The notes beneath the pieces are model-generated. The model searched no databases. It had not been told where the DNA came from and saw only the letters and a list, made by a program, of their open reading frames with translations. Positions 3,711-48,531 of a DNA stretch of 64,000 nucleotides are shown in pieces. Position numbers and translations under genes: made by a program. Source of the DNA: Bacteroidota bacterium (GTDB taxonomy: Bacteria; Bacteroidota; Ignavibacteria; SZUA-365); assembly GCA_014860565.1 (NCBI GenBank), contig JACZJN010000162.1:14739-78738 (forward strand), written 5' to 3'. Positions within the stretch are counted from its first letter, which is position 1; each line of letters begins with the position of its first letter.

Positions 3711-4679
3711 ATGCCTTTGCTCTGTAATTACTATCTGACCTATCGCTGCAATGCGTACTGTGCATTCTGCCATTTCGGAGATCACGGTGCGTTTCGCGAT
3801 GCGAGGCATGCCCGCACCGAGGATGTGCTCAGGAACATTGCGGACCTGCGTACTCTGGGTGTGCGCTTCGTCGATCTGACCGGAGGGGAACCGCTGCTTC
3901 ATCCGGATATCGCCCGCATCGCTGCGGAAACACGGCGGCTTGGCATGAAGGCGAGCATCACAACCAATGCGCTGCTGTACCCGAAACATGCAGAGGCTCT
4001 GGCAGGGAATGTTGATCTGCTGCACTTTTCTCTCGACAGCGCGGATCCATTGCAGCATAACGCAATGCGTGGCGTGGATTGCTTCGATCACGTGCTCGAA
4101 AGCATTGTCATCGCAAAGGACCTCGGCGAGCGGCCTGATCTGCTCTTTACTGTCACGAATGAGAACGTCGATCAGATGGAGGGGGTGTACGAAATTGCGC
4201 GGCGGTACGGACTGATGTTGCTGTTGAATCCCGTCTTTCGATATTTTCGCGAGGAAGGGCTCAGCGATGAGGCCATAGCACAGACCGAGCGATTCTCCCG
4301 CAAACCCATGGTCTACCTCAATCCATCATTTCTCACACTGCGACGTAAAGGAGGGAACAGCATCGACGATCCCCTCTGCAAGGCAGTTTCCCGCGTGGTC
4401 GTGATTTCACCGGATAACGAAATTCTCCTGCCGTGCTACCACCTGCACTATGAAAAACTGCCCATCGGAGAAAGCCTGAAGCATGCATGGCAATCGGAGC
4501 GTGTCCGCTGGCATCAGAAGCACGAGGGGAGGCACGAATTCTGTGAGGGATGCACCATCAACTGTTATTTCGAACCGTCATTCGCATATCCGACGAATCT
4601 CCTTTCGCTGGCGTCAGTGCCGTCCAAGATCAAATACGGGTATTCGAAATACCTCGTGCAATCTCTCCGGAAACGGTAA
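3711..4679 (+). CDS. Radical SAM enzyme with a C-terminal Cys-rich auxiliary-cluster-like region (SPASM/twitch-like).
   Basis: MPLLCNYYLTYRCNAYCAFCHF contains the CX3CX2C radical-SAM motif. A GGEPLL glycine-rich SAM-binding motif follows. The C-terminus has Cys residues spaced ...PCYHLH...(30)...FCEGCTINCYF. The gene is divergent from the AlbA_2 regulator gene. Confidence 0.8.
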   Translation: MPLLCNYYLTYRCNAYCAFCHFGDHGAFRDARHARTEDVLRNIADLRTLGVRFVDLTGGEPLLHPDIARIAAETRRLGMKASITTNALLYPKHAEALAGNVDLLHFSLDSADPLQHNAMRGVDCFDHVLESIVIAKDLGERPDLLFTVTNENVDQMEGVYEIARRYGLMLLLNPVFRYFREEGLSDEAIAQTERFSRKPMVYLNPSFLTLRRKGGNSIDDPLCKAVSRVVVISPDNEILLPCYHLHYEKLPIGESLKHAWQSERVRWHQKHEGRHEFCEGCTINCYFEPSFAYPTNLLSLASVPSKIKYGYSKYLVQSLRKR

Positions 4680-4712
4680 CTCTCGATGAGATGCGGCTGC
4701 CCGTGCCATGAA

Positions 4713-4778
4713 TGCAGCGGGAACAATCACGCCGCCGCATCGGTCAGCAGCGGGAACAATCACGCCGCCGCGTCCGTC
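4713..4778. repeat. Two tandem 33-bp direct repeats: a perfect 25-bp core GCAGCGGGAACAATCACGCCGCCGC plus an 8-bp tail (ATCGGTCA / GTCCGTCA).
   Basis: Read directly from the sequence: copies at 4713-4745 and 4746-4778, 31/33 identical. They sit in the intergenic region between the radical SAM gene and moxR. Confidence 0.9.
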
Positions 4779-4976
4779 AAATGAGATTGTGCCGCCCGGA
4801 CACCCACCCGTAGCCCGCGAAAAGGATAGGGCGCTTTATTTGGGTTTGCGTGAGATTCCATTCGATGATTATTTTTCCCTGATAGTATTTTTTGCTGGGA
4901 TCTCCGATACGCGCGTATGCGATCCGGAAGCCCGCCCACAGTTTCGATCATCATCATTCGGACCATTGGAGTGCCA

Positions 4977-5966
4977 ATGCAAGTGAATATCCAGGAAATC
5001 AACGAACGCATCCAACAGGAAAGCGCATTTGTCGACGCCCTGAAAATGGAAATCGGTAAAGTCATCATCGGCCAGAAGGGAATGGTCGAACGGCTGCTGA
5101 TCGGCCTGCTCGGCGACGGCCACATTCTGCTCGAAGGCGTGCCGGGTCTGGCGAAGACCACGGCCATCAAAACGCTCGCCGCGTCGATGAAAGCCAGTTT
5201 CCACCGAATCCAGTTTACCCCCGATCTGCTCCCGGCCGATCTTGTGGGAACCATGATCTACAATCAGAAGAACGGCGAGTTCCAGACCAAGCAGGGACCG
5301 GTCTTCGCAAATTTCATCCTTGCCGATGAAATCAACCGTTCCCCCGCGAAAGTACAGAGCGCCCTTCTAGAGGCCATGCAGGAGCGGCAGGTGACGATTG
5401 GAGAACATACGTACCCGCTCCCGAAGCCGTTTCTCGTCATGGCAACGCAGAATCCTATTGAACAGGAAGGAACCTATCCGTTGCCCGAAGCGCAGGTAGA
5501 TCGTTTCATGCTGAAAATCAAAATCGATTACCCTTCGCGGGAAGAGGAGTTGGCCATCATGCGCCAGCAGATCTCGCAGGAAATTCCCGTTCCCAACCCC
5601 GTTGTTTCTGTTGACGATGTTATCCGTGCACGAGACGCCATGCACGCTGTGTATATGGATGAGAAAATCGAACGCTACATTCTTGACATCGTGGAAGCGA
5701 CCCGGCGGCCGCGCGATTTCAAGCTCGACCGCATCAGCAGCTACATCGCATACGGCGGCTCCCCGCGCGCGACCATCAACCTTGCTATCGCGGGAAAGGC
5801 GCATGCTTTCGTCAACCGGCGCGGGTACGTGATTCCTGAAGACATCCGCGCGATCTGTTTCGATGTCCTCCGCCATCGCGTCGCCGTCACCTATGAAGCC
5901 GAGGCAGAGGAAATGAACTCCGAAATGATCGTGCAGGAAATTCTCGACACCATCGAGGTTCCCTGA
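4977..5966 (+). CDS. MoxR-family AAA+ ATPase, first gene of the Bat-type operon.
   Basis: Walker A GVPGLAKT, Walker B ILADEINR, and the MoxR-typical N-terminal segment ...IIGQKGMVERLLIGLLGDGHILLEGVPG. Confidence 0.9.
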   Translation: MQVNIQEINERIQQESAFVDALKMEIGKVIIGQKGMVERLLIGLLGDGHILLEGVPGLAKTTAIKTLAASMKASFHRIQFTPDLLPADLVGTMIYNQKNGEFQTKQGPVFANFILADEINRSPAKVQSALLEAMQERQVTIGEHTYPLPKPFLVMATQNPIEQEGTYPLPEAQVDRFMLKIKIDYPSREEELAIMRQQISQEIPVPNPVVSVDDVIRARDAMHAVYMDEKIERYILDIVEATRRPRDFKLDRISSYIAYGGSPRATINLAIAGKAHAFVNRRGYVIPEDIRAICFDVLRHRVAVTYEAEAEEMNSEMIVQEILDTIEVP

Positions 5967-9959: not shown

Positions 9960-10811
9960 ATGAAGCTGCGCAAGATGGTAATCACCGTTGCGTTATCCAT
10001 TCTCGCCGCTGGCGCGCATGCACAGTCGTATCGCAGTACCGTCAACGACGGGAACGATTTGTACCACAATAAGCAGTACGATCGAGCGCGAGAGAAATAC
10101 GAACAGGCAGCCATCGAGGAGCCGGAGCGTCCTGAAAGCTTTTTCAATGCCGGCAATGCCGCGTATCGCAATAACGATATCAAGGCCGCGCTGGATAAAT
10201 ATGAGAAGGCGGGGCTCCGCGTCAAGGACAAACAGACACTTGCACGTACGTTATACAATGCCGGAAATACCTTTCTGAACGCCGCGGAAAAAGGCGAAGA
10301 GAATCCCGCCCTGAAACAGGCGGCCGGGGAAGAGGCGGGGAATCTGCAGATGGAGGGCTACAAACAGGCGATCGAGATGTACAAGAAAGCCCTGAAACTC
10401 GATCCCAACGATCAGGATGCGAGGTATAATCTGACCTACGCTCGGAAGAAACTCGAGGATCTGCAGAAGCAGCAGCAAAACCAGAACAAGGATCAGAACA
10501 AGGATAAGAAGGATCAGAAGCAGGATAAACAGAAGGATCAGAAGAATCAGGACAAGAACAAGCAGGAAGAGCAGCAGAAGAAGGACAAGCAGGATCAGGA
10601 AAAGCAAAAGCAACAGAACCAGAAGGACAACGAACAAAAGGATAAGGCAAAGCAGGATCAGCAGCAGCAGCCCCAGCCGCAGAAGGAACAAAACATGTCG
10701 AAGCAGCAGGCCGAACAAATCCTGCGTGCACTTCAGAGAGATGAAAAAGAATTGCAGAAGAAGAAAAGGCAGCAGCAGGGACGCCGTATCAATGTCGAAA
10801 AAGACTGGTGA
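9960..10811 (+). CDS. batC: BatC-type TPR-repeat protein with a K/D/Q-rich low-complexity C-terminal region.
   Basis: Signal peptide, then TPR-like repeats (YNAGNAAYRNNDIKAALDKYEKA; YNAGNTFLNAA). The gene sits between the batB- and batD-type genes. Confidence 0.75.
   Translation: MKLRKMVITVALSILAAGAHAQSYRSTVNDGNDLYHNKQYDRAREKYEQAAIEEPERPESFFNAGNAAYRNNDIKAALDKYEKAGLRVKDKQTLARTLYNAGNTFLNAAEKGEENPALKQAAGEEAGNLQMEGYKQAIEMYKKALKLDPNDQDARYNLTYARKKLEDLQKQQQNQNKDQNKDKKDQKQDKQKDQKNQDKNKQEEQQKKDKQDQEKQKQQNQKDNEQKDKAKQDQQQQPQPQKEQNMSKQQAEQILRALQRDEKELQKKKRQQQGRRINVEKDW
10468..10700. repeat. Low-complexity purine-rich coding repeat (imperfect AAGGATCAGAA-like units) encoding the KDQ-rich tail of BatC.
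   Basis: Direct reading shows repeated cagaacaaggatcagaacaaggataagaaggatcagaagcaggataaacagaaggatcagaag... Confidence 0.8.
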
Positions 10812-40746: not shown

Positions 40747-41397
40747 TTATTCATAAATGTCTTTCAGTAATTCCTGAAGCTGGAGGCGTCCGCGGCTGAT
40801 GCGGGACTTCACCGTTCCGATGGGCATACCGACGATTTCGGCGATTTCTTCGTAACTCAATTCCTGCACATCGCGCAGAATAACCGCTTCACGGAACACA
40901 TCCGGCAACTCGAGCAGGGCCTCTTGTATGCGGTCATAGACAATACTGCTGTCAGCGCTGCGATCGGGTAACGGATCATTATCGATCAAGGGAATCGAAT
41001 ACTCTTCATCATCGTTTTTTTTACGATCGATCGGCGTCAGATACTTGCGATGGCCTCTTCGCAATTCACTTTTCGCGAGATTGCCGGCGATAGTATAGAT
41101 CCAAGTCGAAACGCGTGCGATTGTCCGGTACAGATGCTTTTTCCGGTACACTCGGATGAAGGTGTCCTGGAGAATATCCGCGGCGTCTTCGTTGTTGCCG
41201 GTGAAGCGGAATATATAGTTCATCAGGGGATTTTGATATCGCTCCACCAGGATGTCGAACGCAAGCCGTACATCGCGTTGAAACAGCAGCATGAGTTCTT
41301 CATCGGACAGCGAATCGAGGGTGACACGATCCAGCTTTTTCACCTCGATAAGCTTTTCTACCCTCTGTTCCAGGGAAAGTTCCTGGGTTTGATCCAT
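40747..41397 (-). CDS. RNA polymerase ECF-type sigma-70 factor.
   Basis: Region 2 (DILQDTFIRVYRK, TWIYTIAGNLA) and region 4 (LSYEEIAEIVGMPIGTVKSRISRGR) are both present. Confidence 0.85.
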   Translation of the reverse strand: MDQTQELSLEQRVEKLIEVKKLDRVTLDSLSDEELMLLFQRDVRLAFDILVERYQNPLMNYIFRFTGNNEDAADILQDTFIRVYRKKHLYRTIARVSTWIYTIAGNLAKSELRRGHRKYLTPIDRKKNDDEEYSIPLIDNDPLPDRSADSSIVYDRIQEALLELPDVFREAVILRDVQELSYEEIAEIVGMPIGTVKSRISRGRLQLQELLKDIYE

Positions 41398-46690: not shown

Positions 46691-47389
46691 TCACAGAATC
46701 CTTATCTTTTGTTGTTCAAGTTCCCGGACAATGCTTTCTGCTTCCGCATCGCTGAGTTTTTCAAGTACATCTTCTTGCGATAAGTAATTGAGGCTCGCGG
46801 AGACGACCGCAGAATAGGGAACATCGTCGAGTAATGTCAGATCAATTGCGGTATTCAGACTTGATGCATCGCTGGCGGAGGACGCTTCCTCGGAGATGAG
46901 TTCTCTATTGGCTGATTGCTCAAAAATCATGATATCGTCCAGCATGGGCGTAGTGGGGGATAGGTCAGCGATCCCAAGCAGATCGTTTTCATTGAACAAT
47001 CCAGAGAACAGTGCCTCCTGAGAATCCAACGTTTCCACCGATGGGAAAAGGACTATCGCGGCAATAATCAGAAGGACCGCTGTAGAAAACAAGGGGACAA
47101 AAAGAGCTGGACGGCCGATGTGGCGCAGTACAGGCCTGTAACCCCTTGCGTTTCGATCGATGCCAGCGTTTACGCCAACAAGAAAACGGCCGGGATCGGA
47201 AATACCTTCGCCAGGAATATCGCGAGTGAGAATACCGGAAAAGAACTCTCGTAGCTCACGTTCCTCAGCAGCACATGAAGAAGAGGTTGACAGATGCTCG
47301 CGCATCATACGGCTCTCCTCCGCATCGAGTTTCCCGTCGACGTAATCGGGCAGACGCCCGTCGCAGATTTTACATTCGCGTTTTGACAT
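46691..47389 (-). CDS. Anti-sigma factor with an N-terminal zinc finger (zf-HC2-like) and one TM.
   Basis: MSKRECKICDGRLPDYVDGKL...H...C matches the zf-HC2 pattern. TM ALFVPLFSTAVLLIIAAIVLF. The gene overlaps the end of the sigma gene by 20 nt. Confidence 0.65.
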   Translation of the reverse strand: MSKRECKICDGRLPDYVDGKLDAEESRMMREHLSTSSSCAAEERELREFFSGILTRDIPGEGISDPGRFLVGVNAGIDRNARGYRPVLRHIGRPALFVPLFSTAVLLIIAAIVLFPSVETLDSQEALFSGLFNENDLLGIADLSPTTPMLDDIMIFEQSANRELISEEASSASDASSLNTAIDLTLLDDVPYSAVVSASLNYLSQEDVLEKLSDAEAESIVRELEQQKIRIL

Positions 47390-47918
47390 ATTCTTCAATT
47401 TTCTTGGTGGCGTGATGATAATTTGCCTTGAGTCCACCAACCGAGGTCTTCAGTATTGTGGCAATCTCGTCGTACGAAAGTTCCTCATAATAACGGAGAA
47501 TGAACACCGCTTTCTGTTTTTCTGGTAGATGATCGACCCCGTCCCGCACGAGACGTCGCAGTTCTTCCTGTTCGAAGCTCACGGATGGAGAGGGAGAGGT
47601 GTCCTGAATCTGATGATGATCGTCGCTCATACTGAAAAACGTGCGCAAACGCCCTTTCCGTATATGGTTGAGACTGAGATTGACAGCGATGCGGTAAAGC
47701 CAGGTGAAAACCTGTGCGTCGCCGCGAAACTCGGCCACTTTCTCGTACGCCTTGATAAATACTTCCTGCGCGATATCGCGCGCGTCGTCCTGGTCGGCAA
47801 CCATTCGATGCACGACCTGGAACACGCGGTCCTGGTATTTTCGCACCAACAGGTTGAATGCGGCGCGATCTCCCTGTCGGCAGGCGTCGAGTATGTCCGT
47901 TTCGCGCGGTGGTTGCAT
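47370..47918 (-). CDS. RNA polymerase ECF-type sigma-70 factor.
   Basis: Region 2 (DIAQEVFIKAYEK, TWLYRIAVNLS) and region 4 (LSYDEIATILKTSVGGLKANYHHATKK). Confidence 0.85.
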   Translation of the reverse strand: MQPPRETDILDACRQGDRAAFNLLVRKYQDRVFQVVHRMVADQDDARDIAQEVFIKAYEKVAEFRGDAQVFTWLYRIAVNLSLNHIRKGRLRTFFSMSDDHHQIQDTSPSPSVSFEQEELRRLVRDGVDHLPEKQKAVFILRYYEELSYDEIATILKTSVGGLKANYHHATKKIEEYVKTRM

Positions 47919-47986
47919 GGATGTCGAAAAGTACGAACTGCATGATTCTGTTCCGATATGTGATTGATCACGGAACATCGGTGCTA

Positions 47987-48307
47987 TTAGAAACGTGCTC
48001 CACCGCGACGGTTTGGCATGTTGCCACCTTTTCCGCGAAACTCTTCTCTCGCCGAGAGGAATTCCTCCAACGTCACATAGCCGTCGCTGTCCTTGTCCAT
48101 ACGCTGGAAGCGGTCTTCCGGGGCGCCTCTGCGTGAGGGCATATCGCGGAATTCGTCCCAGGAAATCCGTCCGTCCCCATCCTTATCCATCCGTATGAAG
48201 AATGCTTGCGGGTCGCCTTCCGGTGGACGATCCGGCTCGGATGACGAGCACGATGCCGCAAGTACTGTAACGGGCAGTAAGAGCATGAAAAGGAAAGGAG
48301 GGCGCAT
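47987..48307 (-). CDS. EF-hand calcium-binding lipoprotein.
   Basis: Lipobox LAASCSS. Two canonical EF-hand loops, DKDGDGRISWDEF and DKDSDGYVTLEEF. Confidence 0.7.
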   Translation of the reverse strand: MRPPFLFMLLLPVTVLAASCSSSEPDRPPEGDPQAFFIRMDKDGDGRISWDEFRDMPSRRGAPEDRFQRMDKDSDGYVTLEEFLSAREEFRGKGGNMPNRRGGARF

Positions 48308-48380
48308 AGCGGTTGTTTCCTGAAATGAGCATGAACGAACACTCGGATTTGACACGAGGATCGCCTGCTGGTTTAATTCG

Positions 48381-48398
48381 AGGAAGGAAGGAAGGAAG
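48381..48398. repeat. (GGAA)4 microsatellite in the divergent intergenic region.
   Basis: Direct reading: aggaaggaaggaaggaag. Confidence 0.9.
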
Positions 48399-48531
48399 TT
48401 CCAACTGCCGGTACAGACGCCGTCGTTGTGCTCCAGTATTGCTCAAGCAGGCTGAATTGCATATTATACCTTCTTCCAAGCGCACAAATGTGAGCGCAGT
48501 GCATCAAATCTTGATCTGGTAAGCCGAGTTC

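Follow-up and report, generated by a model that had tools for sequence, protein, structure and literature searches.

A tandem duplication of a probable ECF-type promoter upstream of the Bat operon in an uncultured Bacteroidota lineage

Gene context and form of the repeat

The window, by which we mean the whole 64-kb stretch of DNA analysed here, encodes a Bat operon whose gene order, according to Pfam, is MoxR, DUF58, an unknown protein, BatA, BatB, a TPR (BatC) protein and BatD. A radical-SAM gene lies immediately upstream on the same strand, and the principal features of the locus are the following.

3711–4679, + strand: radical-SAM gene, with its stop codon at 4677–4679
4680–4713, + strand: spacer between the radical-SAM stop and the repeat, poorly conserved and with few invariant columns in a three-way alignment
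4840–4877, + strand: proximal promoter-like block, comprising TTGGGTTTGC (4840–4849), GATTCC (4854–4859) and TATTTTT (4870–4876)
4977–5966, + strand: moxR, the first gene of the Bat operon (Pfam AAA_3 and AAA_lid_2), with its ATG at 4977 and the RBS GGAG at 4968–4971

In an exact-protein look-up neither the 331-aa MoxR call (P0002) nor the 346-aa radical-SAM ORF was on record, the exact MoxR protein being recorded as a 329-aa call.

Between the two genes lie two 33-nt copies of one sequence, arranged head to tail, with copy 1 at 4714–4746 (GCAGCGGGAACAATCACGCCGCCGCATCGGTCA) and copy 2 at 4747–4779 (GCAGCGGGAACAATCACGCCGCCGCGTCCGTCA). A first-pass annotation of this DNA had reported a perfect repeat of two 33-bp copies at 4713–4778; both copies are indeed present, but the coordinates were off by one and the copies agree at only 31 of their 33 positions. 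The mismatches fall at unit positions 26 (A/G) and 29 (G/C), and identity between the copies is unbroken over the first 25 nt of the unit only. The same annotation had placed the repeat some 200 bp upstream of moxR and just past the radical-SAM stop, in agreement with the measured gaps: 35 nt separate the radical-SAM stop codon from the start of the repeat, and 198 nt its end from the MoxR ATG. Its description as part of a leader region is not supported, since the conserved proximal block at 4840–4877, which resembles a promoter, comes only downstream of the repeat, and the repeat is itself promoter-like.

TRF reported the repeat with a period of 33, 2.0 copies and a score of 118, as the sole strong non-coding tandem repeat in the window. 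Its 25-nt core, found twice in the window, never appeared in 100 dinucleotide-preserving shuffles, which places the repeat far beyond chance. No third copy of the core was found in the 64-kb window with up to three mismatches allowed, and a sensitive blastn search of the unit against the rest of the window gave chance-level matches of at most 14 nt. An independent Logan assembly (SRR12686321) matched the window without a difference over 6,990 nt, the two copies and their two mismatches included, and the repeat is therefore no assembly artefact. A likeness between 4686–4703 and 4781–4798 (14 of 18 nt) was treated as chance, as it could not be extended and was absent in relatives. Beyond the window, a scan for the 20-nt core in species-representative genomes, a set in which the source genome is not included, gave 15 single matches in unrelated GC-rich taxa, and a metagenome scan with the clade consensus pattern matched only the contig of one close relative (L007, see below).

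These searches bear directly on whether the unit might be a dispersed REP- or MITE-like element or a structured RNA, which we regard as extremely improbable. The first-pass annotation had named a REP-like element as what dispersed copies would point to, and there are none within the 64-kb window; the unit is also syntenic in three species. Folding of 4680–4845 gave z-scores of +0.53 and +0.47 for the two strands, no better than shuffles. A permissive Rfam scan of 4400–5200 (E up to 10) returned two sub-threshold chance matches with E of at least 2, and at gathering level the whole window yielded, as its only match, a tRNA gene (2791–2863, − strand) situated between a cytidine-deaminase-like and a Schlafen/AlbA_2 gene, with no riboswitch or leader family at the repeat. 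Nothing relevant emerged from a terminator and sigma-70 scan of the + strand around the repeat, and no terminator-like site was found on that strand in 4680–4713. We found nothing positive to set on the other side; the unit is GC-rich, and a hairpin at its junction is seen on the minus strand.

Relatives and history of the duplication

The radical-SAM/moxR locus was compared between the window and eight further lineages obtained from exact-protein look-ups, and the synteny of the two genes was kept in all nine. In the nearest relatives, L002 and L007, MoxR is 97% identical and a single repeat unit is present, and deletion of either copy from the window gives an intergenic length of 264 nt, compared to 263 and 259 nt in these two lineages. 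The ancestor thus had one copy, and the duplication belongs to the lineage of the window alone, so that, for the tandem arrangement at least, the alternative offered in the first-pass annotation, a duplication footprint, is borne out. The homologous unit is confined to these three lineages (the window, L002 and L007, hereafter the trio), and the whole repeat-bearing segment is absent from L003, L008 and L004.

Four-fold degenerate sites differ between the window and L002/L007 at 53–60% of positions, compared with two of 33 positions between the two copies in the window, which makes the duplication far more recent than the split, if not entirely new. We therefore picture a 33-nt segment that would have been duplicated head to tail after the lineage separated from its nearest known relatives.

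Two invariant boxes resemble an ECF-type promoter

Alignment of the trio revealed two invariant boxes, GGGAACAA (8 nt) and CGTCAAA (7 nt), which lie at a fixed distance of 15 nt and are separated by sequence that varies. The arrangement GGGAACAA-N15-CGTCAAA can equally be written GGAAC-N17-CGTC, on the + strand and pointing at the Bat operon. All three genomes agree at only 28% of four-fold sites, no invariant run exceeds 5 in the 394 sites of this kind, and about 0.005 invariant runs of 8 nt are expected in 126 nt; in shuffled spacers the run lengths of the invariant boxes were never reached. Whichever frame is read, third-codon positions inside the boxes do not vary, although synonymous divergence is saturated, and no ORF at the repeat spacer is shared between lineages (seven lineages, six frames), which together place the constraint on the nucleotide sequence and not on a protein.

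The same observations weigh on any coding interpretation. ORF 4708–4986, which the first-pass annotation had set aside as a mere translation of the repeat, is indeed not a gene, having no Pfam match and no conservation. Another ORF, 4686–4784 (+ strand; MRCGCPCHECSGNNHAAASVSSGNNHAAASVK), begins 7 nt past the radical-SAM stop codon and could encode a 32-aa Cys-rich peptide, for example a RiPP precursor, with the repeat as an in-frame duplication of 11 codons; the repeat, at a length divisible by three, leaves the reading frame open. We nevertheless consider a small protein gene very improbable: none of the frames of L002 or L007 contains a counterpart of this ORF, the invariant third-codon positions speak for constraint at the nucleotide level, and the radical-SAM protein carries no SPASM or peptide-maturase assignment above cutoff.

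Promoters recognised by ECF sigma factors carry AAC in the −35 and CGT or CGTC in the −10 element, with spacers of about 14–17 bp (PMC5758882), the −35 of Escherichia coli sigmaE being GGAACTT (PMC5758882; PMC3397946). In an ECF promoter that has been dissected experimentally CGTC occupies −13 to −10, and its mutation abolishes both binding and transcription (PMC3397946). At the Bat locus, GGAAC is found in both copies, in L002 and L007 and also in two more distant lineages, L026 and L027 (see below), and CGTC in all of these except copy 1, which has GGTC. L027 shares the 17-nt spacer of the trio and L026 has one of 16 nt, and across the orthologous sites the boxes are conserved around a freely varying spacer. 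Judged by its sequence, the putative element has every hallmark of RpoE/SigW-class promoters. We consider it likely that the 33-bp unit is an ECF-type promoter of the Bat operon that was recently duplicated in this lineage and whose upstream copy has been crippled. Under this interpretation the features of the repeat are the following.

4714–4746, + strand: copy 1, putative degenerate promoter copy, with GGAAC at 4720–4724, a 17-nt spacer and GGTC at 4742–4745
4747–4779, + strand: copy 2, intact putative ECF-type promoter, with GGAAC at 4753–4757, a 17-nt spacer and CGTC at 4775–4778 (CGTCAAA at 4775–4781)
4785–4790, + strand: GATYGT block, kept in the window, L002 and L007 at a fixed distance from the two boxes, around the start predicted for copy 2

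In copy 2, for which the pattern search gave a match at 4753–4778, the native downstream sequence AAA..GATTGT is retained. Copy 1 is followed by GCAG, the start of copy 2, instead of AAAT, and so is without the conserved AAA/GATYGT continuation. At the position where copy 1 has G in its GGTC, both L002 and L007 have C, from which it follows that C is ancestral and G derived. With GGTC in place of CGTC and the downstream continuation missing, copy 1 is probably weak or inactive as a promoter.

An ECF (extracytoplasmic-function, group 4) sigma–RNA polymerase holoenzyme would, on this reading, initiate at copy 2, with a start predicted near 4788 if CGTC occupies −13 to −10 (numbering of PMC3397946). 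A transcription factor reading the same two boxes may be an alternative to a sigma factor.

It is also conceivable that both copies work as tandem promoters, the duplication having been selected to raise or tune ECF-dependent expression of the Bat operon. Copy 1 has kept its −35 and spacer intact, the duplication has persisted long enough for two substitutions, and L026 has independently amplified a 20-nt unit beside its own ECF-like motif. Against this stand the GGTC of copy 1 in place of CGTC and its AGC in place of the conserved AAA, the critical nature of the CGTC bases in the ECF system in which they were tested (PMC3397946), and the fact that one of the two substitutions falls exactly in the −10, as expected for decay. 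Two firing promoters therefore appear to us distinctly improbable.

If the 33-bp unit is an ECF-type promoter, the duplicated segment begins 6 nt before the −35 and ends 1 nt beyond the −10 (CGTC). With known slippage or unequal-exchange duplications it shares the head-to-tail copies without a spacer, the single copy in sister lineages and the slight divergence between copies. It differs from them in that the segment nearly coincides with the putative promoter, −35 to −10, and in the lack of microhomology at the junction, where the flanks (t at 4713 versus a at 4746, and a at 4780 versus g at 4747) do not extend the repeat.

A conserved proximal promoter-like block

About 90 nt downstream of the putative repeat promoter, the proximal block reads as TTGCGT-N18-TATTTT or, alternatively, as TTTG-N21-TAnnTTT. 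Within it TGGGTTTGC is the same in each of the nine lineages, although synonymous divergence is saturated, and few lineages depart from GATTCC and the TAtTTT box (L026 has GACTTG and TATGTT, and L002 has TAATTT). TTTG/TAnnTTTG is the promoter form of the Bacteroidetes, which the Bat proximal block also fits, and the only match to TTTG-N19-21-TANNTTT in the window is the Bat block itself, compared with 0.86 expected by chance. The spelling TTGCGT-N18-TATTTT resembles TTGCTC-N17-TATTAT, a conserved sequence at 48439–48467 (+ strand), about 65 nt upstream of metG (methionyl-tRNA synthetase, 48532), and this canonical-looking promoter suggests that sigma-70-like −35/−10 boxes are used by the organism. 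A sigma-54 reading of the proximal block was rejected on inspection, as the spacing of GG and GC is wrong.

In L003, L008 and L004, whose spacers are 17–30 nt long, the proximal block is the only one of the two elements present. The proximal block is probably a housekeeping promoter, and the additional conserved GATTCC between its boxes could be an operator. We thus envisage for the Bat operon a constitutive proximal promoter together with, probably, a stress-inducible distal promoter of the ECF type, with moxR as the presumed target of both. The absence of the motif from the very short spacers of L003, L008 and L004 indicates that the distal element is dispensable for the Bat operon.

Recurrence of the motif in other lineages

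Two of the more distant lineages carry the same motif in the moxR-upstream spacer and on the same strand as the trio, GGAAC-N16-CGTC in L026 and GGAAC-N17-CGTC in L027, each known from a single sequence. Their spacers do not align with those of the trio, and the motif is non-homologous in position, its distance to the proximal block being −111 in L026, −49 in L027 and, for the trio, between −87 and −89. When the six spacers from outside the trio were shuffled 20,000 times, 0.28% of the trials gave at least one match and none gave two; matches on the reverse strand were absent. This recurrence in L026 and L027, although unplanned as a test, is the strongest one to which the ECF reading was put. 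That the motif lies at no constant distance from the proximal promoter speaks for an autonomous promoter and against a phased activator site.

Motif density points the same way, with five matches in 4.1 kb of spacer (1.2 per kb) versus two in 225 kb of other sequence (0.009 per kb). In the window as a whole GGAAC-N16-18-CGTC is not enriched, with five matches versus 2.3 expected, and a count of G[GA]AAC in the spacers (10 versus 2.5 expected) is too confounded by homology to be used. The spacer of L009 (L009:1906–1999) has GGAAG-N15-CGGTC where others have GGAAC-N16/17-CGTC, and this may be a decayed ECF-type promoter.

The element very probably acts in cis on the Bat operon, as the first-pass annotation had supposed. 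That the unit is instead functionless and the repeat a slippage scar in junk intergenic DNA would accord with the absence of the whole segment from L003, L008 and L004, with a tandem arrangement confined to one lineage and with the lack of an RNA structure signal (z-scores 0.5) or Rfam match. We judge this quite unlikely given that boxes of 8 and 7 nt have stayed invariant despite near-saturated neutral divergence and that the motif appears again, independently, in L026 and L027.

The specific form of regulation proposed in the first-pass annotation, an operator pair for a dimeric regulator with the 33-bp period putting both sites on the same helical face, is not supported. In this model each unit, as an operator or activator site, would bind one subunit or dimer and the two would act together on the Bat promoter. 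The unit does have conserved boxes and does lie upstream of a conserved promoter block; there is a weak, imperfect inverted repeat (ACAATC 4756–4761/GATTGT 4785–4790), and in Riemerella anatipestifer the Bat operon is directly controlled by PhoP, a response regulator (PMC9603813). The pair, however, is not conserved among the relatives, L002 and L007 having one unit each and L003, L004 and L009, as well as L008, having no intact GGAAC/CGTC motif in their spacers. The two conserved boxes form no dyad and do not repeat each other directly, and the inverted repeat, which reaches beyond the unit, is poorly preserved in L007. The distance from the motif to the proximal promoter varies (−31 inferred, −49, −88), unlike that of a phased activator site. 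Moreover, in sequence and spacing (GGAAC and CGTC, separated by 17 nt) the boxes match an ECF promoter, and a conserved base is lost in copy 1. An operator pair is therefore unlikely in our view. As the pair is not conserved, the 33-bp phasing is an accident of duplication, its spacing being simply the length of the segment that was copied, and the case is a caution that a tandem repeat of about three helical turns need not mean an operator pair.

The ECF-promoter reading leaves room for a further, more speculative idea concerning tandem amplification. L026, in which MoxR is 89% identical, has its own tandem array in the moxR-upstream spacer (L026:1633–1729), with a 20-nt unit (GTCGTTGCGATTGGCTTTAG) in about 4–5 copies, of which the first, diverged unit contains the CGTC of the motif and the last coincides with the TTGGGTTTGC block, an independent second case of amplification at the Bat promoter region. 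Two of the five motif-bearing lineages thus have tandem arrays touching the −10/start region, 33 nt × 2 here and 20 nt × 4–5 in L026. That such amplification of the ECF-promoter region is a recurrent and selected tuning of Bat-operon expression seems to us improbable. If amplification were selected, the arrays would serve as a copy-number 'rheostat' or as decoy sites that bind the sigma holoenzyme, and would not be products of neutral slippage.

Candidate sigma factors in the window

Two genes in the window encode ECF sigma factors that are candidates for the trans-acting factor.

47370–47918, − strand: RpoE/SigW-like ECF sigma gene (Pfam Sigma70_r2 and r4_2), candidate trans-acting factor
40747–41397, − strand: second ECF sigma gene, RpoE/SigW/SigM-like (Pfam and NCBIfam), candidate trans-acting factor

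The product of the first gene matches the NCBIfam sigma70-ECF model above cutoff, its best model being RpoE. The gene belongs to an operon (46691–48355, − strand) that comprises an EF-hand protein, the RpoE-like ECF sigma factor and a zf-HC2 anti-sigma factor, the composition being taken from L028. Upstream of this operon lies the conserved sequence TTAAACC-N15-TGTCAAA (48376–48348, minus strand), which shares AAC and GTCAAA with the Bat element, with a different −35 and a spacing 1 nt shorter. A nearby GGAAC-N17-CG (48379–48402, − strand) was considered as an autoregulatory site and rejected, as it is not conserved in L028 or L029; a (TCCT)n microsatellite at 48381–48398 is likewise specific to the window, with unrelated sequence in its place in L028 and L029. 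The second ECF gene starts 17 nt downstream of the preceding gene, and no ECF-like promoter motif was seen directly upstream of it. Bacteroidetes have on average about 22 ECFs per genome (PMC7826278).

Relation to known systems

Among the closest parallels to the putative Bat promoter are those of E. coli sigmaE (RpoE), with the consensus GGAACTT-N16-TCAAA (PMC3397946). The −35 GGAAC is the same, CGTCAAA contains TCAAA, and in both cases there are two boxes with a free spacer; the setting of a stress-response operon is also common to both, and genes for RpoE-like ECF sigma factors are present in the window. The two differ in that TCAAA lies one base further from the −35 here, and in that the host of the putative promoter is an uncultured Bacteroidota/Ignavibacteria-like MAG. 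Promoters of Bacillus subtilis sigmaW, sigmaM, sigmaX and sigmaV take the form xGAAAC-N16/17-CGTA or CGTC (PMC5758882) and thus have the same AAC in the −35, CGTC in the −10 and a spacer of 16–17 nt, whilst the Bat element has GGAAC instead of TGAAAC as its −35 and no T-tract after it.

Within the same phylum, SigH (ECF114) of Porphyromonas gingivalis is an oxygen-responsive ECF sigma factor that promotes aerotolerance (PMC7826278), and is comparable as an ECF sigma linked to aerotolerance, though no link between SigH and the Bat operon was found in the literature searched. In R. anatipestifer PhoP acts directly upstream of moxR/bat and the operon responds to H2O2 (PMC9603813); that regulator uses a TTTAACA-type motif, and no such motif is conserved here. 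The literature searched contained no report of an ECF promoter on any Bat operon.

The Bat operon (MoxR-DUF58-BatA-D) is widespread, and its function and regulation are poorly understood. An ECF-type promoter motif before this operon in five of nine related lineages offers a testable regulatory link, and, if true, an envelope- or redox-stress sigma factor would switch on the operon on top of its constitutive promoter. The locus would also show a promoter duplication caught with one copy already decaying. A specialist would find little surprise in either element, ECF promoters and slippage duplications both being ordinary, and the value of the case, as a regulatory lead and a promoter duplication with a decaying copy, is modest.

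Tandem repeats occur in coding sequence of these operons as well. In L026 (4699–4773) a near-perfect, in-frame repeat of 18 nt × 4.2 lies in the unknown gene between DUF58 and BatA, and in the window overlapping low-complexity tandem repeats at 10482–10606, with periods of 9–33, encode the K/D/Q-rich C-terminal tail of the TPR (BatC-like) protein.
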